From contig OY843751.1 of NCBI GenBank assembly GCA_963693055.1, positions 3,488,001-3,552,000 on the forward strand: a stretch of 64,000 nt of DNA, written 5' to 3'. A program made the position numbers and the translations under genes. The notes under the pieces were generated by a model, which ran no database searches, was not told the origin of the DNA, and worked only from the letters and a program-made list of their open reading frames with translations. Positions 10,229 to 34,582 of this stretch are shown here, piece after piece; within the stretch, counting starts at the first letter, position 1; every line of letters starts with the position of its first letter. This DNA comes from a bacterium (GTDB lineage: Bacteria > Zhuqueibacterota > Zhuqueibacteria > Residuimicrobiales > Krinioviventaceae).

Positions 10229-10258
10229 TTATAGTCCTTTTCTATAAAATATTAATCC

Positions 10259-10282
10259 CTGGCCCGTTATACAACGAGCCAG
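10259..10282 (-). repeat. Conserved intergenic hairpin, copy 1
   Basis: Minus strand CTGGCTCGTT-GTAT-AACGGGCCAG followed by GGATTAATAT. Confidence 0.7.
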
Positions 10283-10294
10283 ATAATGATCCGA

Positions 10295-13360: not shown

Positions 13361-13391
13361 TTAAAATCCTTTTCAATAAAATAATAATCCA

Positions 13392-13413
13392 TGGCCCATT
13401 TTTAAACGAGCTA
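13392..13413 (-). repeat. Conserved intergenic hairpin, copy 2 (degenerate)
   Basis: Minus strand TAGCTCGTTT-AA-AAATGGGCCA followed by TGGATTATTAT. Confidence 0.55.
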
Positions 13414-13425
13414 AAGTCAATCAGA

Positions 13426-16494: not shown

Positions 16495-16526
16495 TTCAAC
16501 CCCGTTTCGAAAATAAATATTAATCC

Positions 16527-16550
16527 CTGGCCCGCTTTTAAACGGACCAG
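16527..16550 (-). repeat. Conserved intergenic hairpin, copy 3
   Basis: Minus strand CTGGTCCG-TTTAAAAG-CGGGCCAG followed by GGATTAATAT. Confidence 0.7.
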
Positions 16551-16562
16551 AGAATAATCAGA

Positions 16563-19500
16563 TTATTTCAACAATATACATTTCTGGATCTTGGAATATC
16601 CCTCTGTCACCATCCGGATAAAGTATGTTCCAGATGACCGGTTGCTCGCCTGCCAATTGATCGTGTATCTGCCGGGAGATTTGTGTTCGTCTACCAGCGT
16701 TTCAACCAGACTGCCATTCACGTTGTAAATGCTCACCTTGACATGCTGTGCGGCCGGAACATCGAAGGTGATATTCGTTGTTGGATTAAACGGATTGGGA
16801 TAATTGCCGTACAATGCAAAAGTCGTTGGTTGTTCGGACAAGCCCGCAATACCAGTTGGGAATTGTACTGAAATATAATCCGTTTTTGACAGCTTTGATA
16901 CGCCTCCAGGTCCTGTGACCGTTAGCGTAACCGTATAGGTATCCACTTTGGTGTAGACATGACTCGGGTTCTGCGCGGTACTGGTGAGTCCGTCTCCAAA
17001 CTGCCACAACCACGATATTATAGCTCCGGAAGAAGTATCTGAGAATTGGACTGTCATGGGTACAGATCCTTCAATGATATCTGCAGTAAAGCCTGCAACA
17101 GGCAAAGGCTCAATTGTAATAATATAATTTTTCTTTTCAACCTGATCCGTTCCACTGGGACCGCTAACCGTCAGTTTTACATTGAATGTATCTACAGTCG
17201 TGTATTCATGTACGGGATTTTGTTCGGTACTGGTAGAGCCATCACCAAAATCCCAGCTCCACGCATTGATAGAGCCTGATGATTCGTCAGTAAATGTAAC
17301 TGTTAATGGATTATCTCCACTTGTAGTATCTGCGCTGAACGCAGCAACCGGAGCTGCATCGGTTACATATACTGTATCGGTTTTGCTGTCACTACCGTCA
17401 GTACTGCTGACAGTCAGAGTTACATAATAGCTATCCGCTGTAGCATAGGTATGTTCGGGATTTTGCTCAGTGCTGCTCTCACCATCACCGAAATCCCATG
17501 CCCAATCTTCTACAAATCCTGTGGACTGGTCTGTAAACTGTACGGTCAAGGGTGCCGTACCGGATTTGGGCAGGTGGGTAAAATCCGCAATCGGTGGCAG
17601 CGTCTCGGGAATATCCAACAGCACAACATACTGGCTTTCAGCTCCATTTGCACCCTCGGCAAGGTTGCCGCCAAGCACCAAATCACCCGAACTTACTTGT
17701 TTTTTATATAAATCGAAATATTCTGCTTCATCGCTGATCCCAATCTGATCTCCAGTAGCTGTATATTGGTCAGCAATCCAGTTTGGCAAAGATGCAGCAC
17801 GGCTGTCATAAGCAATGTAAACAGTACCGTTGCCATTTAAACGTACTGCACACAAGGTGTCTGAGATATTACTCTTTTGTTCATTGGGCATTTGCAGCCA
17901 CAACAATCCCTGTAGACTATCAGGAACTGATGTGATATAGTATCCCCGATCAGTGTAATAGCTGTCACCTGCCTGTAGAAAACCCGGTTGATACAGAACA
18001 GAATCACCTGATGTGATTTGTTGTTTCACCGTGTCGGTAGTAATACGATACGGCAAAATAATGATAGAGTCAGGATACTCGTAACCCATTAAATTTTGAA
18101 AAATAATCGAGTTTCCTGGCATTTCATCAAATCCAAACCAGAGAGACAGTTCAGCAGCATTTACAGCATTTTGTTCATTAGTCAAGATTGTATATAATTC
18201 TGCTGAATTGCAGATATCTGATAAATTTTCCCAACCATCAATACTCACATTATGTTGGTTGTTTATTGCATTACCAATAGCAGACTGGGGATTTATCTGG
18301 CCGTTCCCTTTACCAATAGCCGCATTGGGAGAAGAATCCAACTCCATAGCAAGTTTTACAGAATTCTCAAAATCCAGTGAACCTTTTAACACAATATTTA
18401 ATAAATTGCCTTGAGTAAATTGATCGGCAAAAGCCTCTGCACCGTCATTTTTCAACAACTCTTTGAATTGGTTTTGCGTTATAGGATTATAACCAAAAAT
18501 TTCGGTTTGTTTATCATTTTGTAACGTATACCCAGTTATGGTAAAAATATCAGGATAATTTGTATTGTCATTATTTTTATCAAAGGTAATATACTCACCC
18601 AACGATTTATCAAAACTCATCCACAAAACAACACCCGTAGTGTCTAGCGGATTATTAGTTGATAATTCAGTCTTGAAATACAATTCTTGAGTAGATAAAT
18701 AATCAATTTCCTGCCAATTCACATCATTCATTTCAACAGCACTATCAGAATCTGGCCCTATTTTACAAATATTACCATTGCTGGAGATGGCCCTGCCAAT
18801 AACTGCCAGCGGAGTCTGCTTCAGATTAGCAGTAATATATTCCACAACAGTTTCATGGCTATACTCTTTGGGTAACCCCGCAATCTTGAACTCGTAAACA
18901 TAAGGTGCATCTAATTTTTCCAAATATTGAGATGGCAACGTATTGCTCATATAATTATTAAAATCAGACCTGGTAATAGTATGCCGATCTATAATTGCAG
19001 TATGATCAGTAGTATAGGCATTAATAATAAACCTGGGCTCACAATCTCCATAGTCTTCATAAACAATCTCGTCCCCTATAGATGCATACGAACCAATCCA
19101 AATATGTAATTTTGATTGATGATGCATTTGAGGATGTGCAAGCATTGAAAAATAGATCCTTTTATTTGCAAAGTATTTTGTAATATTGAACCATTCAACG
19201 TTTTCTTGATAATCTAACATTAAACATGAATCAGGATCGGTCAAATAAGACAAATTAATTCCCAAATCAACGCTACCTTCATTTCCTGGCTCCGAATCAA
19301 GTCTACCAATCACTAAAGATGGTACAGATTCAAGTTTCCATAGAAAATCAGTAATTGTATCATATACATAAGCTCCACTTATTTCTATTTTATAAACAAA
19401 TGGATAATTAGGCAAGTTTGCAAACCCATCTGCCTCACCTTCTTTTATTAATTCCTCAAGTTCTGCTCGAGGTATATATTCATGTTCAAAAGATATTCTT

Positions 19501-19577
19501 TTCTCATTTTCTTGTGCAAAACCAAAATTTACAATCACACAGCACACCAATAAAAAACACATCATAATATGTTTCAT
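16563..19577 (-). CDS. Secreted PKD-repeat protein with T9SS-type C-terminal sorting domain (paralogue A, first in array)
   Basis: Same architecture; 1004 aa; most divergent N-terminus. Confidence 0.9.
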   Translation of the reverse strand: MKHIMMCFLLVCCVIVNFGFAQENEKRISFEHEYIPRAELEELIKEGEADGFANLPNYPFVYKIEISGAYVYDTITDFLWKLESVPSLVIGRLDSEPGNEGSVDLGINLSYLTDPDSCLMLDYQENVEWFNITKYFANKRIYFSMLAHPQMHHQSKLHIWIGSYASIGDEIVYEDYGDCEPRFIINAYTTDHTAIIDRHTITRSDFNNYMSNTLPSQYLEKLDAPYVYEFKIAGLPKEYSHETVVEYITANLKQTPLAVIGRAISSNGNICKIGPDSDSAVEMNDVNWQEIDYLSTQELYFKTELSTNNPLDTTGVVLWMSFDKSLGEYITFDKNNDNTNYPDIFTITGYTLQNDKQTEIFGYNPITQNQFKELLKNDGAEAFADQFTQGNLLNIVLKGSLDFENSVKLAMELDSSPNAAIGKGNGQINPQSAIGNAINNQHNVSIDGWENLSDICNSAELYTILTNEQNAVNAAELSLWFGFDEMPGNSIIFQNLMGYEYPDSIIILPYRITTDTVKQQITSGDSVLYQPGFLQAGDSYYTDRGYYITSVPDSLQGLLWLQMPNEQKSNISDTLCAVRLNGNGTVYIAYDSRAASLPNWIADQYTATGDQIGISDEAEYFDLYKKQVSSGDLVLGGNLAEGANGAESQYVVLLDIPETLPPIADFTHLPKSGTAPLTVQFTDQSTGFVEDWAWDFGDGESSTEQNPEHTYATADSYYVTLTVSSTDGSDSKTDTVYVTDAAPVAAFSADTTSGDNPLTVTFTDESSGSINAWSWDFGDGSTSTEQNPVHEYTTVDTFNVKLTVSGPSGTDQVEKKNYIITIEPLPVAGFTADIIEGSVPMTVQFSDTSSGAIISWLWQFGDGLTSTAQNPSHVYTKVDTYTVTLTVTGPGGVSKLSKTDYISVQFPTGIAGLSEQPTTFALYGNYPNPFNPTTNITFDVPAAQHVKVSIYNVNGSLVETLVDEHKSPGRYTINWQASNRSSGTYFIRMVTEGYSKIQKCILLK

Positions 19578-21903: not shown

Positions 21904-21906
21904 CAG

Positions 21907-21941
21907 AAAAAAAACGCCGGTCAAAAACAAACCGGCGTTTT
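21907..21941. terminator. Bidirectional intrinsic terminator
   Basis: aaaacgccggt-N9-accggcgtttt with an A-run on the left, between convergent genes. Confidence 0.8.
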
Positions 21942-21970
21942 GGAGGAGCTGATCACAACCTGAATGATCG

Positions 21971-23302
21971 TTAAATTTCGGGCAAGCTTATAATAAATCG
22001 CACACCATGTTCAAGATTCTCCACAGTGAACGATCCCTTATGCTTGACAATAATTTCTTTACATATCATGAGACCAAAACGGTTTTCCAAATCGGCTTCT
22101 ACATTTGTCAAGGGCTGAAACAATTGTTTCAACTCGCTCTTATCAAGACCTTTAAACCGATTGCTAAATAATAACTTTACTCTACCCTGATCAGGATTAT
22201 AGCAGGTTTGTAGATTAAAGTTATAAATATTGGTTTTCTCAATGAAAAAATTACAAATATTATACAATGCTAAATGCATCTGGGTTTTATCAATTTTGAC
22301 ATCAGGAATATCGCTTTGAATCTGTACATCAAAAATAGGATTATTTTTTGTATAAATGGTATGAATAAAATCCATAAACTCTTTAACTAGATCATTTATA
22401 CTACAATTTTCAAGCCGGGTCTCTATTCGGATATTATCAACCAAACCGTTTGACATGCTTTGTAGTTCTTTTAACAAAAATGAAATATTACCCAACTTGT
22501 CCGCTACACGATCCAAATTTGCATTCTTTTCCAAATAGCGGGTAACTAATTCTAGACTGCTGCTGGTTTCAAGAAGAAAATTATTCAAAAGGTGACCTAT
22601 ACTAGCGGCTACTTTGGTTTCGGCAGCAACTTTTTCCACATCTATCAATGCACCTGAAGTATTTGAAAGACTTGCAAAGGATTGCTCTTGCAATTGATAA
22701 AACATGGCATTACGAATTGCAATTGCTGCCTGGGTTGAAAAATGCTGTACAAGCTCCTGTTTGATTTTAGAATCACCAATCAAAGGATTTGCGCTATCGG
22801 CATAAATCAGACCCAGAATATCATTATCAATAATCAATGGGCAACAGATAATACTCTTGGAGTCCAAATGTTTATTGGGGAATAATTGTACTTTAGAAAC
22901 GTCATCAAAGTAATAGATGGCTTTGTGTTGATATGTTTTTAAAAGAATATTTTTAACAATCTTGAAATTTTTCTTGTCCAGATTATTATGGTTTGCATCT
23001 CGGGCAATTTTAAACTCCAGACGGCCCTGGGGAGTTTTTAATAATAAAAAGCCTCTTTCTGCCTGAATTACAGAGATAAGGGAATCAATAACAGATTCAA
23101 GAACCTGACCAAGACTAAGGGTTGAATAAATTTGACCAAAGCTGTTTACTACGGTTGAAATATAATCCCAATGTTCAGGGGAGTGGTCCAAGGTAGGATC
23201 AAGTTGATATTTACCGTGATCTTTGAATTCCAGATTGTCTTGTTGATAATCAATAAAATGTTCATCGTCACGTATGAGTTCTTTATTCAAGTCGTTCTTC
23301 AT
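21971..23302 (-). CDS. GAF-domain histidine-kinase paralogue with degenerate catalytic motifs (probable pseudokinase)
   Basis: GAF (AERGFLLL, SIICCPL, GLIYADS); H-box GHLLNN; N/G1/G2 boxes eroded. Start moved to ATG 23302 after GGAGG. Confidence 0.8.
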   Translation of the reverse strand: MKNDLNKELIRDDEHFIDYQQDNLEFKDHGKYQLDPTLDHSPEHWDYISTVVNSFGQIYSTLSLGQVLESVIDSLISVIQAERGFLLLKTPQGRLEFKIARDANHNNLDKKNFKIVKNILLKTYQHKAIYYFDDVSKVQLFPNKHLDSKSIICCPLIIDNDILGLIYADSANPLIGDSKIKQELVQHFSTQAAIAIRNAMFYQLQEQSFASLSNTSGALIDVEKVAAETKVAASIGHLLNNFLLETSSSLELVTRYLEKNANLDRVADKLGNISFLLKELQSMSNGLVDNIRIETRLENCSINDLVKEFMDFIHTIYTKNNPIFDVQIQSDIPDVKIDKTQMHLALYNICNFFIEKTNIYNFNLQTCYNPDQGRVKLLFSNRFKGLDKSELKQLFQPLTNVEADLENRFGLMICKEIIVKHKGSFTVENLEHGVRFIISLPEI

Positions 23303-23340
23303 TGCCCGACATCCTCCACACCACACTATTCTGCTATATA

Positions 23341-23367
23341 AAAAGCAAAGGGCCCAAGTAGGGCCCT
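23341..23367 (-). terminator. Intrinsic terminator after the HFS lipoprotein
   Basis: Minus strand AGGGCCC-TACTT-GGGCCCT-TTGCTTTT. Confidence 0.7.
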
Positions 23368-23379
23368 GTTGTATTTAAA

Positions 23380-23961
23380 TCAATCTTTTGTAATCAAGTA
23401 AATCGAAAAATGTTCAATATCAAATGTTACGCGTTGACGGCCTCTGTCCCATTTGAATTTAGTATCATTTGCTGCTGCTGAATTGGAAACTTTGACCCAT
23501 TTAGATCCGTTCCAATTCCACAGAGAAACATTGTCATTTTGAAGTTCTCTAAAGTTCATAACCAATTTTGCATTTGGTGTAAACTCTAAACCTGAAGGAT
23601 CAAAGGTAAAAATCAAATCACCTTTTGAAGTCAAATCTGCCTGAGCATAAATACGCGTATTGCGCTTTGAACTCATTGAGAATGGAGGCACATACAAGTA
23701 ACCAATATTGCGTTTGCCAATCCATCCGCCTTTGCGGTAATTGATTTTTTTGCTTGTTTTCCAGGTTCTAACGATAGTAAAATCGTCATAAGGTAACTCG
23801 TCAATAGCGGTAATACCAGCTATTTTATCCACCCCCATCCCATCATCATCACTTTGTGTTACATCTGCCAATGGTGCATTCGGCATTTTTTCACAACCGG
23901 TTAGCTGCAAACCCACGATCACCATGATCGTTACGAACAACAACCCTCTTAAATGTTTCAT
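23380..23961 (-). CDS. Lipoprotein with ZU5-like domain and C-terminal HFS motif
   Basis: Lipobox LTGC; KGGWI..LYVPP..M, F.PSGLEF...AKL, and VTFDIEHFSIY pattern. Confidence 0.7.
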   Translation of the reverse strand: MKHLRGLLFVTIMVIVGLQLTGCEKMPNAPLADVTQSDDDGMGVDKIAGITAIDELPYDDFTIVRTWKTSKKINYRKGGWIGKRNIGYLYVPPFSMSSKRNTRIYAQADLTSKGDLIFTFDPSGLEFTPNAKLVMNFRELQNDNVSLWNWNGSKWVKVSNSAAANDTKFKWDRGRQRVTFDIEHFSIYLITKD

Positions 23962-24026
23962 CTCTCTCTCCTCTTACTATTTATTTTGATTGTGATTAGG
24001 GGTCTTATTAAATTTACTTTATTACA

Positions 24027-24042
24027 AGCAAATTGTAGGCCA
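24027..24042 (-). promoter_or_regulatory. Sigma54-type -24/-12 promoter for the lipoprotein gene
   Basis: Minus strand TGGCCT-ACAAT-TTGCT versus consensus TGGCAC-N5-TTGCW; ~65 nt before the ATG, with a long AT-rich upstream region. Confidence 0.65.
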
Positions 24043-24247
24043 GAAATTGTCAAAAGAACACTTGGAAACTATAAAAAATGCAAAAAACCACGAAATATCT
24101 TATCATTTATACTAATTATTTACATATTTTCAAAGAAAAATATTAAAAAACTAAACATTTTTTTCAAATTACATAAAATTCAGCATAACAAACCATGCTT
24201 TTGTTGCTTTAACTGGACAACTGTTGAGTTTATGGGACAATAAACCA

Positions 24248-27200
24248 TCACATTGAGGCTTTTACTGTCTTTATACTTTTTAACAAGTCCAGATTTTCCG
24301 GATACTTTATTAATGATTGCTTATAAGAGTCTGGTTCGATATGAGTCAAACATAACTTTAAGCATTGGTATGCTTTACGAAAACATTTATAACTCTTGAT
24401 TTTATCTCCGGCTTTGAAATACATTTTGCCGCGGAGATAATAAATGCTTTTCACTTGAAGCATTAACCCCATCGATTGCGCAATTTCTTCTGCACGGTCC
24501 AGAGTTTTCTCTATCACTTCTATAGGTTTCTGCGCTTTGTACATTGCATTTGCAAACAATATCATTATTTGCAATTTATACCACTTGAAATTAGAATCTT
24601 CTATTACTTTTTGTAAGGATGGCAATATCTTTAAAGCATTTGCCATTTGGCCTTGTTCAATATAATATTGTAAATAAAACATCTCTATCTGCATCTTAAG
24701 CATAATATTAGAATCTTTGTCAGATAATGCTTTGGCTTCATGCAGAGATGGGTTTTCAAATTCACCAGTTTCAAGAAATTTAATTCTGGACTTCATTACC
24801 AGATATTCACCGAGCTTGGATTTATCGTTCAAAGATTCTGTAATTTTTAAACAGGCATCAATAGACATTTGGGCCTGCTCTATTTGATATAAAGCAACAT
24901 AAACCCGGCTTTTTTGAAAGAGCATTTCAGCTTTTGTAGACTCGCTTCGTATACGCTCAGAAAACTTTATTCCTTCATCAAGAATATTTAAAGCATTTGT
25001 ATAATCTTCACGTAAAAAAAGCAATTCACCAATATTACAATGCGATGCTACCAATCCACGAATATCACCAATTCGGTTTTTCAAATCTTTGCATTTTTTA
25101 AAATAATTCAAGGCACGCTCATATTGTCCACTTTCCATCAACAGTATGCCCAGATTATTATAATTTTCTGCAAGTCCGGCCCAGTCACCGGCCTCTTCCA
25201 TTACCTCCATACTTGAACGCCAATAGGTACTGGCTTTTTCAGGATCACCGGAAACATTATATACAATACCCAAATTATTCAGGGTTGCGGCCATACTCTT
25301 TTTATCGCCCATTTCTTTCTTAACTGAAGCACTTTTTGCAAAATATTTAATAGCATATTCAATATTTCCGGAATAAAAGCTAGCTCCACCCAACGTATTC
25401 AATGTTAAAGCCATAATACGAGATGGAGAGTTTTCAGGCAACAAATTCAATGCCTTTTCACCCAACTGAATTGCTTCCTGATAGTTACCTCTCATAATTG
25501 ATAGCCATGCCAATTCTCTCAAAATTAACGCACGTTCTATAATAGCACTTGCAGGAGCCTGCTTTAATGCACGGTTTAAAGCTTCATCCGCCTGATCTAC
25601 ATTACCAATTTTCTGATAAAGATCAGAAATCCGTCTTTCAAGGGCTGATTTGGCAACACCCGCTTTATAATCCGGTAACAATTCGCTATATAAATCAAGA
25701 GCAGTAGTTGAATCTCCCAACGAATCTTTTAAATCAGCTACGTTTCGTTTAAAAAAACGAACAAGCCTTTTTTTATCTGCAGGACTATGGTCCAATGCTA
25801 GCTGGGCAATAACCAGTGCACGTCTATATGAATTTGAATTTTTTAAAATATTAATTGCTTGAGAAGCAAGCGGTATCCCTTCAACGATATACCCTGCTCT
25901 TAAAAAATGTAAAGCCTTTTGATTTGGAGCATATTCCATGTCTGAACACTCTAACAAATATGCTGCTATTCTAGCAGTAATATCAGATTTAGCAGTTTCA
26001 GACAATTGTCCCATAACTGCATCTCTAAAAGCAATAGATAAAAAGCTGTAAACCGTACCCAGTTTGTCGTGATGTTCCAACAGAATACGCTTATCCATCA
26101 ATATTTCTACATTATGCTGGATTTCATTCTCATCACAGTTGACAAGATGTAATAGTAATCGCTTTTCTATTGCAGAATCATAGACTGCGATATTTTGTAA
26201 TATATTTTTTTGGAGTTCAGACAGGTTTCTGAATGTATTCAGATACAGCGCATTGATACTGGAAAGATCCAATGATTCCAGATCATAAGTTTCACTCATC
26301 ATCCAGGTTCTATCAGATCGGATAAAGAAACCTGCATTATTCAAAGCTGTAACAATAGCAGCTACAATCTCAACATTACCACCACTTTTACCATACAATT
26401 GCTGGTAAAATCTGGCAGGAAATAAAGAGGGCTTGAAAGCTGTAAGTAAGAGCTGTTCAAGCTCGGTTTCTTCTAAACACTTTACTCGAAAATCATATAC
26501 CGCAGCAAGTGAATCTCGACCTTTTTGAATATTTAATGCTGCTTCATCAGACTGTCGGTCTGTGGTAATGGTTACAACTATAGATACTTTATCATGGACC
26601 AGCGAACGACCAAGATAATAAATCAGGTCCAGCACTGCATTATTAGCCTGTTCCAGATTACGCAAAATAATTACTATACGCTTTCTTCTGCTTAAATCCC
26701 GAACCAGATTTGAAAATTCTTCCATAAACCGAAAACGTCCAAGTTCGTAATCATCCCGATTTTGACGTATTGCCAACAGCTCAGCTTCGGTTTCGGAAAC
26801 AAGTTTTTCAATATCTGCATACCCTTTAAAAGCATCAATAAAAGGTTGATACAGTGAGCCCTTGTCATCCCGGCACCAGCTCTCAAGGACAGATATATTA
26901 TCCAACTGCATTTTCGATTTTACATCCTGTAAAATTCTATATGCACCAGAGCCTTCATTGCCATTTATTGTAATAAAGTTGATTACATCATCATGTTGTG
27001 ACAAGCCAATGGATATTTGCAGTAAAAGTTTTTGAATTTCAGGATCACGCAACTTTAAAAATGCATCCATAATTAATGGAGAAATAAGGTCACGTGTTTT
27101 TGCAGAATCATAATCTTCAACACCCAAAGCGGTCAACAATTCTTCGCAACTTGCAAACCTCTCCAAAGGATCTTTAGACAAGAGTCTGAAAATAACAGAT

Positions 27201-27967
27201 TCAAGTTTATCAGAAAGATCAACTCCCAGAGCAGAAAATCTTTTGGGCAGCGTGCGCAAATGCCCGCTCTTGATATCATCCGGACTGCCATAAAATGGAG
27301 CTTTTCCGGTCAGGGCCCAGTACATTAAAATACCAACAGCATAAAGATCAGTAGAAAAGGTAACTGGCGCTTTTTGAAAAAGTTCAGGCGCCATGTATTC
27401 TAATGTGCCGCTCAGCGTTTGTTTGAGTTTTATATTTTCATCTTTACGTACGGCAAGACCAAAGTCCATTACCTTAATATTGGGATTCCCCTTTTCATCA
27501 TGGTAAACCATGATGTTTTCGCTTTTTATATCACCGTGCAATATTCCAGAAGCATGAATATAACCCAGTGCCTGTACAAGCTGTATAAACAACTTTACCA
27601 GAATTTCGCTGGAAAAAGAACCAACGGCATCAAAAAAATCTTTGCCATTCACATATTCCATTGTATAGAAATACTCATCACGATCAGAAAATTTACCAAA
27701 ATCAATTACCCGTACCAGGTTAGGGTGCCTGAGTGCGGATAAAATAGCAAATTCCCGACGCAAAGATTCTATAATCTCTGGATCTGAATGTTTTGCATGA
27801 AAGACTTTGAGAACAATGTTCTCATTATCACGTGCGGTATCCTCAACAAGAAAAACAATTCCCATCCCCCCACGGCCCAGCTCCTTAATCACTCGATAAC
27901 GGCCGTTTATCACATCGTCCACAGTTTTCGTTTTTAGTTCAGGAGATTGAAAAACTGCATTTTCCAT
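24248..27967 (-). CDS. Hanks-type Ser/Thr kinase fused to a degenerate STAND/AAA domain and a TPR array
   Basis: LGRGGMGIVF, HGDIKSEN, DFGLA, GTLEYMAPE; P-loop remnant GNEGSGAY; TPRs (TLNTLG, TLNNLG, NYNNLG, HCNIG). Confidence 0.9.
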   Translation of the reverse strand: MENAVFQSPELKTKTVDDVINGRYRVIKELGRGGMGIVFLVEDTARDNENIVLKVFHAKHSDPEIIESLRREFAILSALRHPNLVRVIDFGKFSDRDEYFYTMEYVNGKDFFDAVGSFSSEILVKLFIQLVQALGYIHASGILHGDIKSENIMVYHDEKGNPNIKVMDFGLAVRKDENIKLKQTLSGTLEYMAPELFQKAPVTFSTDLYAVGILMYWALTGKAPFYGSPDDIKSGHLRTLPKRFSALGVDLSDKLESVIFRLLSKDPLERFASCEELLTALGVEDYDSAKTRDLISPLIMDAFLKLRDPEIQKLLLQISIGLSQHDDVINFITINGNEGSGAYRILQDVKSKMQLDNISVLESWCRDDKGSLYQPFIDAFKGYADIEKLVSETEAELLAIRQNRDDYELGRFRFMEEFSNLVRDLSRRKRIVIILRNLEQANNAVLDLIYYLGRSLVHDKVSIVVTITTDRQSDEAALNIQKGRDSLAAVYDFRVKCLEETELEQLLLTAFKPSLFPARFYQQLYGKSGGNVEIVAAIVTALNNAGFFIRSDRTWMMSETYDLESLDLSSINALYLNTFRNLSELQKNILQNIAVYDSAIEKRLLLHLVNCDENEIQHNVEILMDKRILLEHHDKLGTVYSFLSIAFRDAVMGQLSETAKSDITARIAAYLLECSDMEYAPNQKALHFLRAGYIVEGIPLASQAINILKNSNSYRRALVIAQLALDHSPADKKRLVRFFKRNVADLKDSLGDSTTALDLYSELLPDYKAGVAKSALERRISDLYQKIGNVDQADEALNRALKQAPASAIIERALILRELAWLSIMRGNYQEAIQLGEKALNLLPENSPSRIMALTLNTLGGASFYSGNIEYAIKYFAKSASVKKEMGDKKSMAATLNNLGIVYNVSGDPEKASTYWRSSMEVMEEAGDWAGLAENYNNLGILLMESGQYERALNYFKKCKDLKNRIGDIRGLVASHCNIGELLFLREDYTNALNILDEGIKFSERIRSESTKAEMLFQKSRVYVALYQIEQAQMSIDACLKITESLNDKSKLGEYLVMKSRIKFLETGEFENPSLHEAKALSDKDSNIMLKMQIEMFYLQYYIEQGQMANALKILPSLQKVIEDSNFKWYKLQIMILFANAMYKAQKPIEVIEKTLDRAEEIAQSMGLMLQVKSIYYLRGKMYFKAGDKIKSYKCFRKAYQCLKLCLTHIEPDSYKQSLIKYPENLDLLKSIKTVKASM

Positions 27968-27982
27968 TTAAACCATTTTTCG

Positions 27983-29554
27983 TTATTCCCAATACCAATG
28001 CGCTATGTTGAAAAAAGTCGATACAGGAGAAAATTGTATTCCCTTTAATTGCTTATCCATTCCAACAATTCGTTCAGGGATCCACAAAAATGTTGCGGGT
28101 TGTTCCTGAACAATAATTTCTTGAAATTCATACCACAAAGGCCTGGATTTTTCGGGCTCCAAGATGTCAGGGGCCTGTTCTATTATTTCATCTATTCGTT
28201 TATTCTGATAACATGACAAATTGAAACCGGGAGATTCAATCATAGAAGAATGCCAAATAGGATAAACATCAACCTTGGTTGCTGACATCATACCCAGTAA
28301 CAAGGCATCAAAATCGCGGGACATTAAATCTTCAACATAAGCTGAAAATTCAAGACGCTGTGGAATCACCTTGATTCCAACCTTTTTTAACATTTCCTGA
28401 ATCATTACGAGTGCATCTTCGCGTACCTGGCTGCCAATATTTGTTAACATTTGAAATTCAAAATCTTTTCCATTTTTATCAAGCCAGCCATCATTATTGC
28501 TGTCAGTCCAACCCTCTTCTTTTAACAGAGTTTTTGCGGTTTCGGGATCAAAGGGTATTGATTCAAGATCAGGATTATATGCCCACAACATGGGATGTAT
28601 AGGGCTGTCATAAACTTTACCATATCCTTTTAACAAATGCTGAACCAGAGTCGGACGATCAATTGACATGGTCAATGCTCTTCGAACACGGGCACTTGCA
28701 AACAAAGATCTACTTGTATTCCATGATATTTGATTAAATTGAGCATATGGAAAATGCTCTAAACGCAGTTGGGGTGAATTGCTAAAATCTGCGTTCGCCG
28801 GAGGTACACCTTCGATAAAATGAATTTCACCAGTTTTAAGCTGTGTAAGGAGTTGTGTTTTATCCGGTACAATTTTAAATACAATCCGTGGAAGCTTGGG
28901 TAACCCTTCAACTGAAAATTTTTCGTTTCTTAACAGCTCAATAAATTGATTTGGTACCCAGGACTGTATAACATATGGACCCGAAAAAACACCATCCAGT
29001 GCAAAATCAAAAGATTTTATTTGTTCTGCGGATTTATCGGCAAATATATGTTTGGGAACGATAACACCTTCACAGGCATCCATTAACTGATAGGGATAAA
29101 GCGTATCAAAATAAAAATCAATTGTTGAATCATTTAATACACGGACTTGCGAAATATGTTCTTTGACATTCGCACCAGCCCACCCGATATCAGGATCGGT
29201 TTGTAATTGAAACGTAAATTCAACATCTGCAGCAGTCAATGGTACACCATCAGACCAAAGCACATCAGATCTCAAATGAAATCGGATTCGACTGTCATTG
29301 TCCATCATCTCCCAGGAACGGGCAAGCGCGGGTTTAAAACTGACAAAATCCGGTTGCTCAATTAACAGGGACTGAAACAACATTTTAGACATTTCAGAAC
29401 CAAATCGCGAGGTTGTAACCAAAGGATTAAAGGAATCTGTATCACCTGGTACACCAATAATCAAAACATTTTTGGTGGCATTTTTTCCACATGAAAATAG
29501 AAAAATCCCCAAGACAGATAATAAAAGCAGAATTGAATTTATTTTAATTTTCAC
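27983..29554 (-). CDS. oppA: Peptide ABC transporter substrate-binding lipoprotein (OppA/DppA/AppA, family 5)
   Basis: Lipobox LFSC; PALARSWE..F.LR.DV.WSDG.PLTA.DV.FT signature; VRRALTMSIDR. Confidence 0.88.
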   Translation of the reverse strand: MKIKINSILLLLSVLGIFLFSCGKNATKNVLIIGVPGDTDSFNPLVTTSRFGSEMSKMLFQSLLIEQPDFVSFKPALARSWEMMDNDSRIRFHLRSDVLWSDGVPLTAADVEFTFQLQTDPDIGWAGANVKEHISQVRVLNDSTIDFYFDTLYPYQLMDACEGVIVPKHIFADKSAEQIKSFDFALDGVFSGPYVIQSWVPNQFIELLRNEKFSVEGLPKLPRIVFKIVPDKTQLLTQLKTGEIHFIEGVPPANADFSNSPQLRLEHFPYAQFNQISWNTSRSLFASARVRRALTMSIDRPTLVQHLLKGYGKVYDSPIHPMLWAYNPDLESIPFDPETAKTLLKEEGWTDSNNDGWLDKNGKDFEFQMLTNIGSQVREDALVMIQEMLKKVGIKVIPQRLEFSAYVEDLMSRDFDALLLGMMSATKVDVYPIWHSSMIESPGFNLSCYQNKRIDEIIEQAPDILEPEKSRPLWYEFQEIIVQEQPATFLWIPERIVGMDKQLKGIQFSPVSTFFNIAHWYWE

Positions 29555-29563
29555 AACTGTCCC

Positions 29564-30985
29564 TTAATAAATGATATCGTCAGAAACATTCAGTTTTTCT
29601 ACTTGTAATCCTTTTTTATCTTTTTGATAAACAGGCAAAGAGAGTGTAAATGTTGAACCTATTCCTAATTCACTATCAACTACAATGGAACCACCATGTT
29701 TTTTGGCAATTGCCTGACAGATACTGAGACCAAATCCATGACCTTCTGCTTTGTCCGTGAACAGAGGTGTAAAAATCTGACTCAATTTAGATTTTTCAAT
29801 ACCGGGGCCGGTATCTTGAATGCATATATCCACGCAATTCTCTTTTTCGAAATAGCGTGTTTTAAATGTAATATGTGTATCCGGACGGACTTCAATAGCA
29901 TTCTTTGTAATATTGTAAAAGATCTGCTGAATTTGTCCCTTGTCAACATCAATCTCTGGTACTTCCGGATCAAAATCCTGTTCAAAACTGGCACCCGATT
30001 TTTTATAAACCGGACGAATAAATTCCATAAAATCATGAACAAGCTGATTCAGGTTACAAGGCTCAATTTTTGTTTCAAGATGTGAATTGTTCATGAGTCC
30101 CTGAGAGAACCGGGTCATATTATCAAGTTTTTTGGCAACAAATTCCAGGTGTCCTAAAACCTTTTTTGTATCTCCCTCATTTACCAGATAGTGTATAGCC
30201 AGCTCAAGGTTTCCATAAATGATTGATAACAAGTTGTTCAACTCGTGACCAATACGTGCAGCCATCTTGCCACGTGCAGCCATCTTTTCAGCATAAATCA
30301 TACGGTCCTGAGCATTCTCTAGCTGCTCATAAGATACTTTGACCTTTTGGTATAATTGAGCATTGCGTATACCTTCGGCAGCCTGATCAGCAAACAACTG
30401 GAACAATTGTTTCTTGATCTTGGATTTACCAATAAGCGGTTGTGAACTGTCTGCATAGATAACACCTATCAATTCACCATTAATAAACATAGGACAGCAG
30501 ACAATACTGCGCAATTTTAATTGACGCACACTTTGAGTAGGAGAGTAATTTTGATCTGAAAAAACATCTTCAATATAAACAATCTCTTTTTTACGGATAG
30601 TTTCGTGTAAATAGCTGTTACTAATTTTGAATTCACTGTCATTCAAAATCTTTTTATCAGCATCACGACCAATCTTAAATTCCATCTCTCCTTTTGTGTT
30701 TTTCAACACAAGAAATCCTCGCTCCGCATGAATAACTGAAATAGCAGCATCCATAACATGCAGCAGAACTCTTTTTATATCCAAAGAACTGTTCATCAAC
30801 CGGAATGTTTCCAGCAATTTAGAAATAAAATTCCAATCGCCTATGGAACTGTCTTCTTCCTGTGCCTCAATCTCTTCGTCCAGATCCTCAATTTCCTGAT
30901 CAAACTGACTTATCAGATCCATAAAATCATTTTCAGCACCAGCTTCTTCTTTTGGAAACAGTTCCCTATCTTTATCCGTGAACAT
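29564..30985 (-). CDS. Cytoplasmic GAF-domain sensor histidine kinase
   Basis: H-box IGHELNN, N-box NITKNA, G1 DTGPG, F-box, G2 GHGFGL all intact; acidic N-terminus; no TM segment. Confidence 0.92.
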   Translation of the reverse strand: MFTDKDRELFPKEEAGAENDFMDLISQFDQEIEDLDEEIEAQEEDSSIGDWNFISKLLETFRLMNSSLDIKRVLLHVMDAAISVIHAERGFLVLKNTKGEMEFKIGRDADKKILNDSEFKISNSYLHETIRKKEIVYIEDVFSDQNYSPTQSVRQLKLRSIVCCPMFINGELIGVIYADSSQPLIGKSKIKKQLFQLFADQAAEGIRNAQLYQKVKVSYEQLENAQDRMIYAEKMAARGKMAARIGHELNNLLSIIYGNLELAIHYLVNEGDTKKVLGHLEFVAKKLDNMTRFSQGLMNNSHLETKIEPCNLNQLVHDFMEFIRPVYKKSGASFEQDFDPEVPEIDVDKGQIQQIFYNITKNAIEVRPDTHITFKTRYFEKENCVDICIQDTGPGIEKSKLSQIFTPLFTDKAEGHGFGLSICQAIAKKHGGSIVVDSELGIGSTFTLSLPVYQKDKKGLQVEKLNVSDDIIY

Positions 30986-31063
30986 TATAAAGCCTCCTAA
31001 TGCGCTTTACAGCAAAATCATAAAATACAATTGGATAACCTTACGGCTAGCCACTAATTTGAG

Positions 31064-31079
31064 TACAAATATTGTGCCG
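31064..31079 (-). promoter_or_regulatory. Possible sigma54-type promoter for the HK-oppA-kinase unit
   Basis: Minus strand CGGCAC-AATAT-TTGTA; correct spacing, but GT instead of GC at -12. Confidence 0.45.
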
Positions 31080-31233
31080 CAAAGATAGCACAATACTAAA
31101 TCTGTTCTACAAACAAGAATAACTCAAATGTTGAATTCCATACAACATATCAACACCGATATAACAGCCCAACCTATTGTTTTTACGAGCCCTGACGAGC
31201 AAGTTTAGGTCAGACATCACGTACACAGAAAAT

Positions 31234-32040
31234 TTAATATTTAAAAAATCTTTCCTGCAAATATTCTCCAAACAAATTAATTAACAAAACTGTTACAACA
31301 ATGGCCACTCCGGGAAACACACTGATCCACCAACCATCTATTAATACCTGCCGGCCCTCATTAATTATATTACCCCAGCTTGGAGTAGGTGGTTGAACAC
31401 CCAGGCCAACAAAACTCAATGCAGATTCAACAAGAATCACATTTCCAAAAAGCAGTGTTGCTGAAACAGCAACCGGGCCAATTAAATTTGGCAGTAAATG
31501 CTTAAATAACAACCTCATTCTAGAGATGCCTATAACGGTTTCTGCCAGAATAAAATCTTTATGCTTTAAAGCAAGGGTCTGGTTGCGCACCAGTCTTGCA
31601 ATATCCATCCAGCTAAATAGCGCTATTATCAAGACAATCCACAATACTGAACTTTTTCCCAATACAGCGGCAACGGACAAGATCAACAAGAATTGCGGAA
31701 TCGCCATAAACACATTGATCACATTATTCAAGACAAAATCGAACCGATCAAAAAAACCACTTGTCAACCCATAAGGTATTCCAATCAATAGTGACATACC
31801 TACGGATAATAATGCCACCCATAAGGAAATTCTCCCTCCATATAACACTCTTGCCATAACATCTCGACCAAATTTATCAGTACCCATCAGATGTCCCGCA
31901 TTTGGTGCATGATATGAGTGTTCAAGATCATGAGTTACAGGATCGTAATTAATCAACAACGGTCCTGCAATTAAACTGATCAGTAATATCAACAACAAGA
32001 CAAGTGATAACGGAATATTTTTTCCTTTAATCTGCATCAA
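31234..32040 (-). CDS. oppC: Peptide ABC transporter permease
   Basis: HLMGTDKFGRDVMAR..GGRISL; HLLPN; ESALSFVGLG.QPP.PSWG. Confidence 0.9.
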   Translation of the reverse strand: MMQIKGKNIPLSLVLLLILLISLIAGPLLINYDPVTHDLEHSYHAPNAGHLMGTDKFGRDVMARVLYGGRISLWVALLSVGMSLLIGIPYGLTSGFFDRFDFVLNNVINVFMAIPQFLLILSVAAVLGKSSVLWIVLIIALFSWMDIARLVRNQTLALKHKDFILAETVIGISRMRLLFKHLLPNLIGPVAVSATLLFGNVILVESALSFVGLGVQPPTPSWGNIINEGRQVLIDGWWISVFPGVAIVVTVLLINLFGEYLQERFFKY

Positions 32041-33008
32041 ACTCGCCCTGTTTGGATTCTGGGGTCAACCATAGCACTGATCAAATCCGCAATCAACGTA
32101 CCCAGCACAACAAATAATGACATTAAAAATGTACATGCAATGATTACCGGATAATCACGCGCAAAGGCTGAATTGATCATCAAACGGCCCATACCCGGCC
32201 ATGAAAAAACCAGCTCTATAATCACAGAACTGGAAAGCAATGCCGGTATATGCTGCCCGGTAATTGTGATTACAGGTACAAGTGTATTTTTGAGTGCATG
32301 ACGCATAACAATATCTTTATGACCAAAGCCCTGAGCACGGGCAGCCATGATAAAAGTTTGATCCATAATTCCTGCTAGACCATTACGGATATACCTGCTG
32401 GTTATTCCCAAAGAAGCCAAAACCATGGTTGAAACCGGTAACAAAGCATGACAGAGACGATCTCCTAATTGAGACCAGAATGGTAAATCCTGAGCAGCAA
32501 AAGAAATCATTTGTGACGACGGCAGCAAACCGAGTTTTTGTGAAAACAGCATAATCAACAAAATACCAATCCAAAAGGATGGTACCGCATATAATACAAG
32601 TGTCGTTATACTGGTAAGCCGATCGATCCAGCTGTTCATATTTAAAATTTGCGTAACACCCAAAGCAATACCAAAGAGCAATTGAAAAAACAGGGCCGGC
32701 AAAGTCAGAGCCAGTGTATTGGGTACAGTTTCTTTTAATATTGATACAACAGTACGATGATTAGCGTACGAAACACCCAAATCTCCATGAAAAATGCTTG
32801 AAATCCATGCACCAAATTGAACCAGTAACGGCTTGTCTAATCCCCAGGCATTTTCCAGCCTGCTCATTGCATCAACAGATCGGGTAGGATCAAAAGCAAT
32901 AGCAGCAGGATTACCAGGACTGAGACGAACCAGAAAAAAAGTTACAATCACCAATCCTACGACAAGCAAAAGCCCGGATATAATTCGCTTTAGTGCATAC
33001 TTAATCAT
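32037..33008 (-). CDS. oppB: Peptide ABC transporter permease
   Basis: PGNPA, GLDKP...Q, GDLGVS, AARAQG, HALKN, FSWPGMG, RDYP, DPRI. Confidence 0.9.
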   Translation of the reverse strand: MIKYALKRIISGLLLVVGLVIVTFFLVRLSPGNPAAIAFDPTRSVDAMSRLENAWGLDKPLLVQFGAWISSIFHGDLGVSYANHRTVVSILKETVPNTLALTLPALFFQLLFGIALGVTQILNMNSWIDRLTSITTLVLYAVPSFWIGILLIMLFSQKLGLLPSSQMISFAAQDLPFWSQLGDRLCHALLPVSTMVLASLGITSRYIRNGLAGIMDQTFIMAARAQGFGHKDIVMRHALKNTLVPVITITGQHIPALLSSSVIIELVFSWPGMGRLMINSAFARDYPVIIACTFLMSLFVVLGTLIADLISAMVDPRIQTGRV

Positions 33009-33781
33009 AAGTTCCTGTTTAATAATGTATTTTTAACCAACTCTTTTGTAAAAGGCTTGGTCGGATTTCTAAATACCTGGTTAACCGTTCCGGTCTCTAT
33101 CATTTCACCATGATGCATAATACCAATCTTGTCTGCCAGCGCAGGCAACAAGTATAAATTATGGGTCATAAACAAAACACTAAGATTATGCTGGGTTTGC
33201 ATTTGCCTGATGAGGTTAATGATCTCCCATTCGGTTGAAACATCCAGACCGGAGGTAGGCTCATCACAAATTAAAAACTCGGGCTTGCGCATCAATGCAC
33301 GTATAATGCAAACACGCTGCGCTTCCCCCCCGCTCAATTGCCGGGGATAACGATCAAGTATTGAGTCTTTTAGTTTTACTTTTTTTAACCAGTTTAAAAT
33401 ATGTTTCTCATAATCAATAAAATCTATTTCCGGCATTAAAGACAAAGGTTCTCTCAAGAGTTCACGGACTGTCATTTTGGGACTAAGTGAAGCCTTGGGA
33501 TCTTGAAAGATAGCCTGACACTGACCACGATACCAGCCCCTTCTATTTCGGATCACTTCATCCAGCGCTTGATTCTGGTAATAAACTTGGCCAGAATCCG
33601 GAGCAAGCAAGCCCAACAATAACTTGCCGATTGTTGATTTTCCGGAACCCGAAGAACCTATCAAACCAAAAATCTCACCGGATTGAATATCAAAACTGAC
33701 ATTTCGGAGCGCGTTAAAAGATCGCTCTGAACCTACATGATTATTATTAAATTTTTTATTTATTTTTTCCAGTCGTACCAT
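33005..33781 (-). CDS. oppF: Peptide ABC transporter ATPase
   Basis: GSSGSGKST, IFQDP, LSGGEAQR, ICDEPTS. Confidence 0.88.
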   Translation of the reverse strand: MVRLEKINKKFNNNHVGSERSFNALRNVSFDIQSGEIFGLIGSSGSGKSTIGKLLLGLLAPDSGQVYYQNQALDEVIRNRRGWYRGQCQAIFQDPKASLSPKMTVRELLREPLSLMPEIDFIDYEKHILNWLKKVKLKDSILDRYPRQLSGGEAQRVCIIRALMRKPEFLICDEPTSGLDVSTEWEIINLIRQMQTQHNLSVLFMTHNLYLLPALADKIGIMHHGEMIETGTVNQVFRNPTKPFTKELVKNTLLNRNL

Positions 33782-33790
33782 ATCTGATTC

Positions 33791-34582
33791 TTAATTATAA
33801 TATCCGCTTTCAAATTGCTGCATAGACATTTTGAAGCGAGAGACTAACAGTTGAGTATATTTATGGCCGGGATTGCGTATGATTTCCGCGGTCTTGCCGG
33901 ATTCTACAATTGAACCCTTTTGCATTACATAAATATAATCAGAAAAATGTGATGCAATTGCAATATCATGTGTTATTAGCAGCAAGGACTTTTTTTGTTT
34001 TACCAGCCCTGTCAATAAAGACATGATATCATATTTCAATACGGCATCAATTCCAGATGTGGGTTCATCCGCAATGATTAGTTCAGGATTTGCTGCAAGC
34101 GCAATAGCTATCATTACACGCTGACGCATACCTCCACTCAACTGATGGGGATATAATTTACAAACACGTTTACCTCCAAGCCCAACTTGCTCTAACCAAG
34201 AATGGGCAGCGGCTTGGGGATTTTTGACATGATAATATTTTAAAACCTTGACAATTTGCTGACCAATAGTATAAACAGGATTTAACGCCAACAATGGCTC
34301 CTGAAAGATATATCCAAATTGACTACCACGGTATCCTGCATAATCAGGTTCATCTACCGGTAGAACTCTGTCATCATAACAGATTTTTCCGGATTGGAAC
34401 GCACCTTCCTTAAACTGCAACAAGCCCATTATAGCATAACCCAATGTAGATTTCCCACTACCGGATTCACCAACAAGGGCGGTTACACATGCCTTACCAA
34501 TTTCCAAATTTACATGATCAACAACATACTGATCAGAATCTGCATACCATACCGAGAAATCATTTACCTCGAGTAAATTCAA
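33791..34582 (-). CDS. oppD: Peptide ABC transporter ATPase
   Basis: GESGSGKS, IFQEP..ALNP, YPHQLSGGMRQR, IADEPT; TTG start. Confidence 0.88.
   Translation of the reverse strand: MNLLEVNDFSVWYADSDQYVVDHVNLEIGKACVTALVGESGSGKSTLGYAIMGLLQFKEGAFQSGKICYDDRVLPVDEPDYAGYRGSQFGYIFQEPLLALNPVYTIGQQIVKVLKYYHVKNPQAAAHSWLEQVGLGGKRVCKLYPHQLSGGMRQRVMIAIALAANPELIIADEPTSGIDAVLKYDIMSLLTGLVKQKKSLLLITHDIAIASHFSDYIYVMQKGSIVESGKTAEIIRNPGHKYTQLLVSRFKMSMQQFESGYYN

Follow-up and report, generated by a model that had tools for sequence, protein, structure and literature searches.

Why is an oligopeptide permease encoded among protein kinases, and what might it deliver to them? In the window, the whole stretch of 64,000 nucleotides that we analysed, nine minus-strand ORFs lie in the transcription order oppD, oppF, oppB, oppC, GAF-HK, oppA, Pkinase-AAA_16-TPR, lipoprotein and GAF pseudo-HK. 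The transporter genes encode two ABC ATPases, OppD (33791..34582; ABC_tran and oligo_HPY) and OppF (33005..33781; ABC_tran), and two permeases, OppB (32037..33008; BPD_transp_1 and BPD_transp_1_N) and OppC (31234..32040; BPD_transp_1 and OppC_N). They are followed by a soluble GAF-HisKA-HATPase histidine kinase (HK; 29564..30985, Pfam), the AppA-like family-5 binding lipoprotein OppA (27983..29554; SBP_bac_5), a protein with Ser/Thr kinase, STAND and TPR regions (24248..27967; Pfam), a small lipoprotein (23380..23961) and the pseudo-HK (21971..23302). ORF coordinates agree with the order and with the gaps around oppA (9 bp after the HK gene, 15 bp before the kinase gene) on which the original prediction of a peptide-responsive circuit was built. 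Two terminator-like hairpins were read from the minus strand, one in the gap between the lipoprotein and pseudo-HK genes (23340..23368) and an intrinsic one at the cluster end (21904..21942). The three kinase proteins indeed lack transmembrane segments, as no 19-residue window exceeded a Kyte-Doolittle value of 1.8 (maxima 1.45-1.61), and a receiver-domain HMM that found 115 ORFs genome-wide found none in the window, which is in line with the claim that no response regulator is encoded there.

The gene order that the prediction relied on is kept in relatives. All nine genes recur in order in four of them (five genomes, from two genera only), and the core of Opp, kinase and HK recurs in six. 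A kinase orthologue was present in 7 of the 61 genomes searched; the identical seven have OppA at at least 52% identity, and the two genes adjoin in every case, which speaks against chance. The oppA, kinase and HK genes remain linked although their mutual order varies among loci. Beyond these close relatives, other families and records from Calditrichia and Gemmatimonadetes contain homologues of the parts in shuffled order, breadth outside the phylum being judged from two sets of 28 and 80 loci. In two relatives with Opp, kinase and HK, G004 (97% complete) and G020 (78%), neither a stand-alone lipoprotein nor an adjacent pseudo-HK was found.

The histidine kinase has all its catalytic boxes intact by sequence: the HELNN, N, G1, F and G2 boxes are kept in the six orthologues aligned, and the acidic residue at H+1 is present. 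The pseudo-HK, 40% identical to it, keeps the His and the Asn/Thr/Ser at H+4 in an H box of the form H-[L/T]-L-N-[N/T/S]; the H+1 Glu and the ATP-binding boxes are gone, with the N-box Asn, DxGxG and G2 missing in all four sequences aligned. Its likelier start is the ATG at 23302, behind GGAGG, rather than that of the longer form at 23326. Given the roles of H-box residues outlined in PMC3510030, this protein is predicted to retain the phosphatase residue alone and to act as a phosphatase or an inhibitor.

The Ser/Thr kinase protein (model pLDDT 95.7) consists of a kinase domain with intact motifs (residues 24-277), a degenerate STAND module (about 307-456) and a TPR array (690-1239). Active STAND NTPases have a GK[S/T] Walker A motif and an acidic Walker B. 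The window protein instead reads GNEGSGAYR, without K[ST]; among seven orthologues the Walker A is G[N/S]EGSG followed by A, H or I, with no Lys, and the Walker B is IILR, which speaks against an active NTPase. Fused kinase-STAND-TPR-GAF-HK relatives exist (L247 and L302), the first matching the window kinase along 1150 residues (26%) and, beyond these, the GAF domain of the HK (31%); no fused kinase-TPR-GAF-HK protein was among the 120 matches listed in the TPR-class search. We rejected an HstK-type single polypeptide for the system itself, as the genes are separate in 7/7 genomes and the fused forms are distant relatives only.

The TPR array had been proposed to be of a peptide-binding type, and fold searches with the model place it near LGN and Rap, which makes it a candidate peptide receptor. 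Its structural neighbours were LGN (Z 31.4), Pins (29.1) and OGT (28.6), and the RRNPP structures RapI (Z 26.9, rmsd 4.5, 332 aligned), NprR-NprX (21.3) and RapH (21.2) scored below all three. The array carries a conserved Asn ladder, and the protein also matches TPR_MalT. With the profile of the family's stand-alone TPR proteins, the window kinase was the best single-domain match of its genome (125 vs 70 bits), in a class of TPR array that is common in unrelated proteins; no Rap protein was among the best 60 sequence matches of this profile.

On the transporter side, the best PDB match of OppA was AppA (1xoc, E 2e-75; next match 2e-42), against 8e-26 for the NikA structure. A role as a NikA nickel binder was dismissed at the NCBIfam cut-offs (126.8 vs 393 and 124.7 vs 600 bits). 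The phylogeny that had been suggested as a check placed OppA with signalling-linked binding proteins (51 of the 55 members of its clade). The claim that this Opp is dedicated to signalling was weakened. No other family-5 system was found in the complete 6.5-Mb genome, and this one may therefore also feed the cell; oppB and oppC have no paralogue there at E 1e-5. Moreover, the closest sister clade of OppA (four sequences, SH 0.996) sits in pyrK-pyrD-cdsA operons, housekeeping settings in which no linked lipoprotein or kinase was found.

What peptide could such a system carry? The original prediction listed an HFS lipoprotein and left its role unexplained; we regard this protein as the key part of the system. 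It has 193 residues, with a lipobox Cys23 and a folded domain (about residues 24-193), and matched no significant family in Pfam or NCBIfam, Pfam ZU5 being a weak match in 23 of 80 members. Its model (pLDDT 90.7) had ankyrin ZU5 as the top Foldseek matches (E 3e-4), and a profile match to ankyrin-1 ZU5 was found at E 4e-4. Structure comparison gave the VIA ankyrin (Z 10.9, rmsd 3.2, 114 aligned), UNC5b (Z 7.7) and the CD97 GAIN domain (Z 7.4). The model thus points to one ZU5/GAIN-B beta-sandwich of the MAIN type, with the HX[S/T] sequence at the turn that leads into the last strand (strands 120-127 and 131-135 of the model flank F128-S129). According to the MAIN preprint (bioRxiv 10.64898/2026.05.12.724683), bacterial MAIN domains are cut at the F-S bond of HFS. 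By analogy, the lipoprotein is predicted to be a self-cleaving precursor, cut between F185 and S186 and so before its last eight residues. The preprint's supplementary tables (15,000 MAIN proteins) may include these lipoproteins.

The His-Phe-Ser site (23404-23412) and the eight-residue C-terminal tail, a predicted signal peptide in the sense of a messenger (23383-23406), together occupy 23383..23412 of the minus strand, and the chain stops eight residues past the cut. HF[S/T] lies near the end in 89 of 92 distinct stand-alone homologues (Ser in 66, Thr in 23), and the C-terminus follows after 7-9 residues in 88 of the 92. Mean identity among 72 proteins was 45.9% in the tail, where position 1 is set by the selection pattern and positions 2-5 have 0-1.4 bits, and 18.8% both at the signal-peptide end and in the eight residues before HF. 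Among lipoproteins of the window's type, which are 37-40% identical as whole proteins, the tail hardly varies. The tail is a core strand, and its conservation is therefore partly structural. Together, these data make the lipoprotein the likely peptide source of the circuit.

Lipoproteins of this kind keep similar company throughout the phylum, probably KSB1. A family-5 binding protein lay within 20 kb of a lipoprotein cluster, on the same contig and strand, in 35 of 64 clusters (33 of 48 genomes). The remaining 29 had none within 20 kb on their own contig; among the 20 of these that were fetched, ten adjoin TPR or sigma-54 parts and ten do not. Phylum-wide, the neighbours also include putative TPR receptors, along with outputs through sigma-54 or kinases. 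Three architectures have Opp, the lipoprotein and one TPR family in common and differ in their outputs, the commonest having the same TPR family without any STAND module. At three loci (L097, L109 and L112) the TPR gene adjoins the lipoprotein gene though the locus has no Opp. Three genomes (G052, G116 and G166) each contain two systems, with different tails and with OppAs from separate clades. No peptidase was a conserved neighbour among the labelled genes of the loci.

Output through sigma-54, another element of the prediction, is supported by the conserved promoter and enhancer before the lipoprotein gene, although no sigma-54 activator is encoded within the window. The -24/-12 promoter (TGGC-N7-TTGC; 24028..24042, minus strand) lies at -74 to -82 of the gene in 5/5 loci, and sigma-54 boxes precede 38 of the 94 lipoprotein ORFs but none of 39 oppA genes. 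Tandem TGT-N12-ACA sites (24202..24239, minus strand), the predicted enhancer for a sigma-54 activator, are kept in 5/5 loci; followed by the box, they occur once in the genome, and the motif was not found ahead of type I/II lipoproteins. Upstream of HK-oppA-kinase, a box that resembles sigma-54 promoters but varies in its -12 element (GG-N10-GT; 31064..31079, minus strand) may function similarly, and CGGCA.A.ATTTGTA is kept there in 5/5 loci aligned. We tabulated 26 sigma-54 activators in search of the output regulator. An orphan receiver-type activator (G000:5635891) and a GAF-type activator (G000:737509) were set aside because they occur in 41/43 and 25/43 genomes of the order, respectively, and so do not track the cluster. 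The ISRPRL helix of type I activators was in no activator of this genome, nor was a response regulator of the circuit identified among the genome's candidates.

How might these parts work together? The components and their linkage, the fold, the position of the HFS site with its 7-9-residue tail, the sigma-54 elements and the catalytic states of the kinases, all read from sequence and structure, lead us to lean, by a modest margin of belief, towards a circuit in which the TPR array reads the tail after its release and import, driving a sigma-54 feedback loop. In this circuit, the exported lipoprotein would cut itself eight residues before its end, as MAIN domains do. It counts against release that in MAIN and ZU5 domains the two halves normally stay together after the cut and came apart only with SDS or heat; the tail, as a strand of the fold, would need unfolding, proteolysis or force to be freed. 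The co-encoded Opp would import it, and the Ser/Thr kinase would bind it through its TPR array. The kinase would then probably control the GAF-HK, as in the fused kinase-STAND-TPR-GAF-HK proteins, and also a sigma-54 activator encoded elsewhere. Sigma-54 transcription of the precursor gene would give positive feedback, which the co-transcribed pseudo-HK may damp as a phosphatase or inactive partner. Of two roles that fit the same data, an autoinducing signal between cells and a private alarm for envelope damage, we favour the first. The circuit as originally proposed is thus partly supported: gene order, OppA grouping, TPR type and the sigma-54 link speak for it, and the dedication of the Opp is doubtful.

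A more ambitious reading, which we offer tentatively and think rather more apt to fail than to hold, is that of a free-floating "tethered agonist": a bacterial GAIN-fold lipoprotein would hold, as its last strand, a pre-cut octapeptide that comes free through unfolding, force or proteolysis and that a co-encoded Opp delivers to TPRs, in a class of peptide signalling that belongs to double-membraned bacteria and is independent of RRNPP. The TPR receptors would be wired interchangeably to sigma-54 activators, to Ser/Thr kinase-FHA modules or, in the window, to a split dual kinase whose HK pair joins a kinase to a phosphatase.

Several other explanations have to be weighed against release and import of the tail. 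Opp might import ambient peptides of 5-10 residues as food that the TPR kinase senses, the lipoprotein being a mere sigma-54-controlled output. That this is the sole Opp found in the genome, that sister OppAs lie within housekeeping operons, that two relatives hold Opp, kinase and HK without the lipoprotein, and that the lipoprotein gene carries a promoter of its own beyond the kinase gene would all suit such nutrient sensing. We consider it unlikely, however, as it leaves unexplained why a cleavage site is followed by a stop 7-9 residues on in 88/92 homologues, why the tail is much better conserved than the adjacent strand, and why two-system genomes differ in tails and OppA clades; the labelled genes also hold no peptidase as a conserved neighbour. 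Less probable still is that the ATPase or permease of Opp controls the STAND-TPR kinase through contact, with transport activity rather than an intracellular peptide as the signal. MalT is controlled in this way by contact with MalK. The STAND module and TPR_MalT match, the solubility of all three kinases and the linkage of oppA, kinase and HK despite changes in order speak for it. Yet the TPR family lacks STAND in the commonest architecture and stays by the lipoprotein at the three Opp-less loci, and the Walker motifs of the window kinase are degenerate.

For enterococcal cCF10, the account in PMC7117660 has the signal as the end of a lipoprotein signal peptide, released by an intramembrane protease. 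An M50 peptidase gene 1.7 kb upstream of oppD could suggest that this established route operates here, with the HFS tail purely structural. This is very improbable: the eight residues before the lipobox Cys are far less conserved than the tail, and signal-peptide ends vary even within the window's type. Nor did we retain the M50 peptidase as a maturation enzyme, since among the loci fetched it was near the cluster only in the same-genus locus. Finally, an ordinary Opp could lie beside unrelated kinases by chance, and the complete order is confined to close relatives. We give this almost no credence, because kinase and OppA co-occur and adjoin in 7/7 genomes; homologous parts also recur, rearranged, in other families and among the Calditrichia and Gemmatimonadetes records, and the neighbourhood data largely refute it.

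If release and import of the tail hold true, intracellular Opp/TPR peptide signalling, described for Bacillota, would extend to double-membraned phyla, with the signal made differently. The idea bears on a question left open in the MAIN preprint, whether the cut C-terminal strand has any role, and connects adhesion-GPCR tethered-agonist chemistry with bacterial signalling; the tethered-agonist reading, if true, would be the first case of a signalling role for the C-terminal piece of a GAIN domain from a microbe. The window version further has a split dual kinase and, under the precursor's sigma-54 promoter, an HK paralogue that is kinase-dead and predicted to be phosphatase-competent. In the literature covered, which took in few subscription journals, we found no paper that connects a ZU5/GAIN lipoprotein with Opp and with TPR receptors, none on kinase and TPR in KSB1 and Calditrichota, and none on such peptide signalling in double-membraned bacteria. 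The organism is known from sequence only, but the peptide can be read from the gene, and the steps are therefore testable with purified proteins and synthetic 8-mers.

The individual parts resemble known systems and depart from them. The lipoprotein shares its predicted fold and HX[S/T] site with MAIN (Brogan and Rudner) and the ZU5/GAIN superfamily (PIDD, Nup98, the NLRP1/CARD8 FIIND and the adhesion-GPCR GAIN domain). MAIN proteins have an N-terminal adhesion or enzyme cargo and a C-terminal wall anchor, whereas the lipoprotein has an N-terminal lipobox and no cargo; its sole cleavage product would be the last strand by itself, which corresponds to the adhesion-GPCR tethered agonist. HstK-type dual kinases, such as cbSTKIII of cyanobacteria (PMC2176072), likewise bring Ser/Thr kinase, GAF and His kinase into one pathway, but the window system is split over two genes with oppA between them and has a pseudo-HK paralogue and a peptide module besides. 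The AppA of B. subtilis is the nearest solved binding protein to the window OppA, and its App permease imports 5-10-mers and prefers that length, as PMC10569065 describes it; App is a general permease with its own operon, whereas the window oppA is co-transcribed with kinases.

The proposed circuit is most like the RRNPP systems (Rap-Phr, NprR-NprX, PlcR-PapR and PrgX-cCF10), with which it would share an exported precursor, a peptide of 5-10 residues, import by Opp/App and a cytoplasmic TPR receptor. RRNPP receptors carry an N-terminal HTH or 3-helix-bundle effector and RRNPP propeptides are short. The window receptor candidate has a Ser/Thr kinase and STAND module in its N-terminal part, and related records come from KSB1, Calditrichia and Gemmatimonadetes rather than Bacillota. 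A secreted propeptide adjoins the receptor gene in RRNPP systems, as outlined in PMC10075063; the exported gene adjacent here encodes the 193-aa lipoprotein, with a folded domain and an unconserved signal-peptide end. The RRNPP signal derives from a short propeptide or signal peptide, and the one proposed here from a folded, predicted self-cleaving lipoprotein. The window system differs further in its co-encoded importer, in its HK/pseudo-HK and sigma-54 outputs, and in a TPR array for which LGN outscores Rap.

Within the window, the nine genes lie on the minus strand at 21971-34582 in the order originally noted (oppD-oppF-oppB-oppC, a GAF histidine kinase (HK), oppA, a Ser/Thr kinase-STAND-TPR gene, a lipoprotein and a GAF pseudo-HK), and the intergenic gaps of 9 and 15 bp were likewise borne out, as was the finding that the three kinase proteins have no membrane segments and the window no receiver domain. 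Gene-order conservation held as well: this order (type III) was identical in four relatives: a member of the same genus and three of a single other genus. OppA, OppB, OppC and the lipoprotein each have no paralogue in the complete 6.5-Mb genome. OppA at ≥52% identity was found in 7 of 61 genomes searched, the kinase was found in the same seven, and the two genes were adjacent in every case. Two genomes, G004 and G020, retain oppDFBC, oppA, the kinase and the HK, with a different gene order in G020; the lipoprotein and pseudo-HK were absent from both loci, and a looser search of these genomes (97 and 78% complete, respectively) found no stand-alone lipoprotein. Metagenome loci of type III included oppC-oppA-kinase, HK-kinase and other partial ones, and the kinase belongs to a small family, with 8 clusters at ≥41% identity. 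The cluster is real and conserved and is part of a modular system, which we did not find in the literature searched.

OppA matches of lower identity (31-40%) revealed two further architectures. Type I combines oppB-C-D-A with a sigma-54 activator whose atypical receiver has neither acidic pocket nor Lys, one or more lipoproteins and a stand-alone TPR protein of ~415 aa, and also occurs in Calditrichia records. Type II comprises up to five lipoproteins, an HD protein, STAND-TPR, TPR, kinase-STAND-TPR, zinc-ribbon TPR and FHA proteins, oppADFBC and a sensorless sigma-54 activator. The lipoprotein profile matched in 72 of the phylum's 167 genomes; discarding matches inside large proteins left 96, in frames of ≤405 aa, forming 64 clusters in 48 genomes. 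A family-5 binding protein lay within 20 kb on the same contig and strand in 35 of the 64 clusters (33 genomes), a count that used 101 of the matches listed. Of the 20 clusters fetched from the remaining 29, 10 adjoin TPR or sigma-54 parts; the other 10 stand apart from them. Lipoprotein-TPR pairs also appeared in Gemmatimonadetes records. Locus L248 carries a fourth arrangement, consisting of a consecutive kinase-STAND-TPR, atypical-receiver sigma-54 activator, sigma-54 box and lipoprotein whose tail has 7 residues.

The cluster's lipoprotein has a lipobox (Cys23) and a single domain. Its AlphaFold model (pLDDT 90.7, 80-sequence alignment) best matched ankyrin ZU5 (Foldseek E 3e-4; VIA Z 10.9), followed by UNC5b, CD97 GAIN and ZO-1 ZU5; sequence profiles agreed weakly with the ZU5 assignment. 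A His-Phe-Ser motif sits in the turn preceding the last strand. HF[S/T] was close to the C-terminus in 89 of 92 distinct stand-alone homologues, 88 of which end 7-9 residues after it. Position 3 of this tail is always Tyr, with type-dependent residues at positions 2, 4 and 6-9; conservation of the tail was 45.9%, compared with 18.8% for both the preceding strand and the signal-peptide end. ZU5-type domains of PIDD, Nup98, CARD8 and NLRP1 are cleaved at this motif with the halves remaining associated (PMC3210808), bacterial ZU5 domains are predicted processing peptidases of large surface proteins (PMC3482391), and bacterial MAIN domains are cut between F and S, again with associated pieces, the main text of that preprint assigning no signalling role to the C-terminal piece (bioRxiv 10.64898/2026.05.12.724683). 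The cluster's lipoprotein differs from these in topology: it is anchored N-terminally and the chain ends just past the site. Lipoproteins at six loci (L092, L093, L099, L079, L149 and L150) have lost the His, Phe or nucleophile, or have a longer tail, with tail sequence still similar. Seven loci (L076, L085, L086, L088, L089, L091 and L115) carry tandem arrays of 3-5 lipoproteins; in L085 and L086 two tail classes alternate, which could represent agonist and antagonist or multiple channels. Genomes with two systems have different tail classes (L035 and L042 in G052, L079 and L080 in G116, L095 and L115 in G166), a pattern in which kinship confounds co-evolution tests.

The closest solved structure to the cluster's OppA was B. 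subtilis AppA, whose App permease prefers 5-10-mers (PMC10569065). OppA stood apart from nickel binders, with NikA and other named families far under their cut-offs. In a midpoint-rooted FastTree of 78 binding proteins >480 aa, with types assigned from gene neighbours, it fell in a clade of 55 (SH 0.996). The importer is signalling-linked in 51 members (31 of type I, 13 of type II and 7 of type III), which falls short of showing the proposed dedicated Opp; the other four, sister to type III, are located in pyrK-pyrD-cdsA operons, and the queries used found no linked receptor in their genomes. In a sister OppA clade (L169, L170, L172, L174, L177, L178 and L182), the binding-protein gene and a GAF-HD phosphodiesterase gene are divergently oriented, and a gene for a ~330-aa protein without a Pfam match often follows the former.

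The kinase protein combines an intact Ser/Thr kinase domain with degenerate STAND motifs and a TPR that carries a conserved Asn ladder. Among single-domain matches to the stand-alone TPR family in the genome, residues 778-990 of this protein ranked first, and fold searches placed the TPR model nearest the peptide-binding TPRs of LGN/Pins, then OGT, BBS4 and RapI. In distant fused proteins (kinase-STAND-TPR-GAF-GAF-HK), a region similar to the window's kinase is followed by one similar to the HK's GAF, an architecture resembling HstK-type dual kinases (PMC2176072); this fusion supports coupling of the window's kinase and HK genes. The HK is intact. In the pseudo-HK the His and the H+4 residue persist, but the H+1 acid and ATP boxes are gone, so it is probably a phosphatase or inactive partner; in HisKA proteins, phosphatase activity requires H+4 and kinase activity the H+1 acid (PMC3510030). 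At L028:16447-17802 and L029:2079-3434, a sigma-54 box precedes a third GAF-HK paralogue, which looks active and is oriented divergently from oppD.

A sigma-54 box precedes the lipoprotein by 74-82 bases in 5 of 5 type III loci compared. Across scanned regions, boxes occurred at 38 of 94 lipoprotein ORFs, compared with 0/39 oppA, 0/30 oppC, 1/32 oppB and 3/34 oppD. Conserved tandem TGT-N12-ACA sites lie upstream of the box, a combination found once in the genome; a variant sigma-54-like box precedes the HK gene, and rpoN is present. A search among the genome's sigma-54 activators identified none for this promoter. At G000:C1:735909-739089 (L222) in the same genome, a GAF sigma-54 activator, of which 25 of 43 genomes have an orthologue, adjoins a second Ser/Thr kinase, and a similar pair adjoins a type I unit in L112. 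An orphan receiver-type activator at G000:C1:5635891-5637273 (L223), with ≥73% identity in 41 of the order's 43 genomes, is a candidate for a target that orphan GAF kinases have in common. In a single case (L242:5769-11917), a receiver-type activator (60% to G000:3229136) stands ahead of oppF and a gene orthologous to the window's kinase.

Elsewhere in the window, 7160-19577 encodes four tandem secreted paralogues of ~1000 aa; the two scanned have C-terminal PKD repeats, a Por/FlgD-type tail and N-terminal halves without a Pfam match. At 39975-43564 an OLD-family ATPase/TOPRIM nuclease is followed by a UvrD helicase, a pair we take to be Gabija-like, and a CsgG-TPR gene lies within a fatty-acid synthesis operon at 52912-53934.

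We favor, at slightly better than even chances, a predicted chain in which the lipoprotein tail would pass through Opp to the TPR of the Ser/Thr kinase; on sequence, structural models and analogy, this is the best explanation of the cluster. Sensing of nutrient peptides appears unlikely as its role, and transporter co-sensing more doubtful still. The favored route from tail through Opp to TPR is like RRNPP signalling in outline of predicted working, whereas in precursor, effector domain and host the cluster falls outside RRNPP membership.
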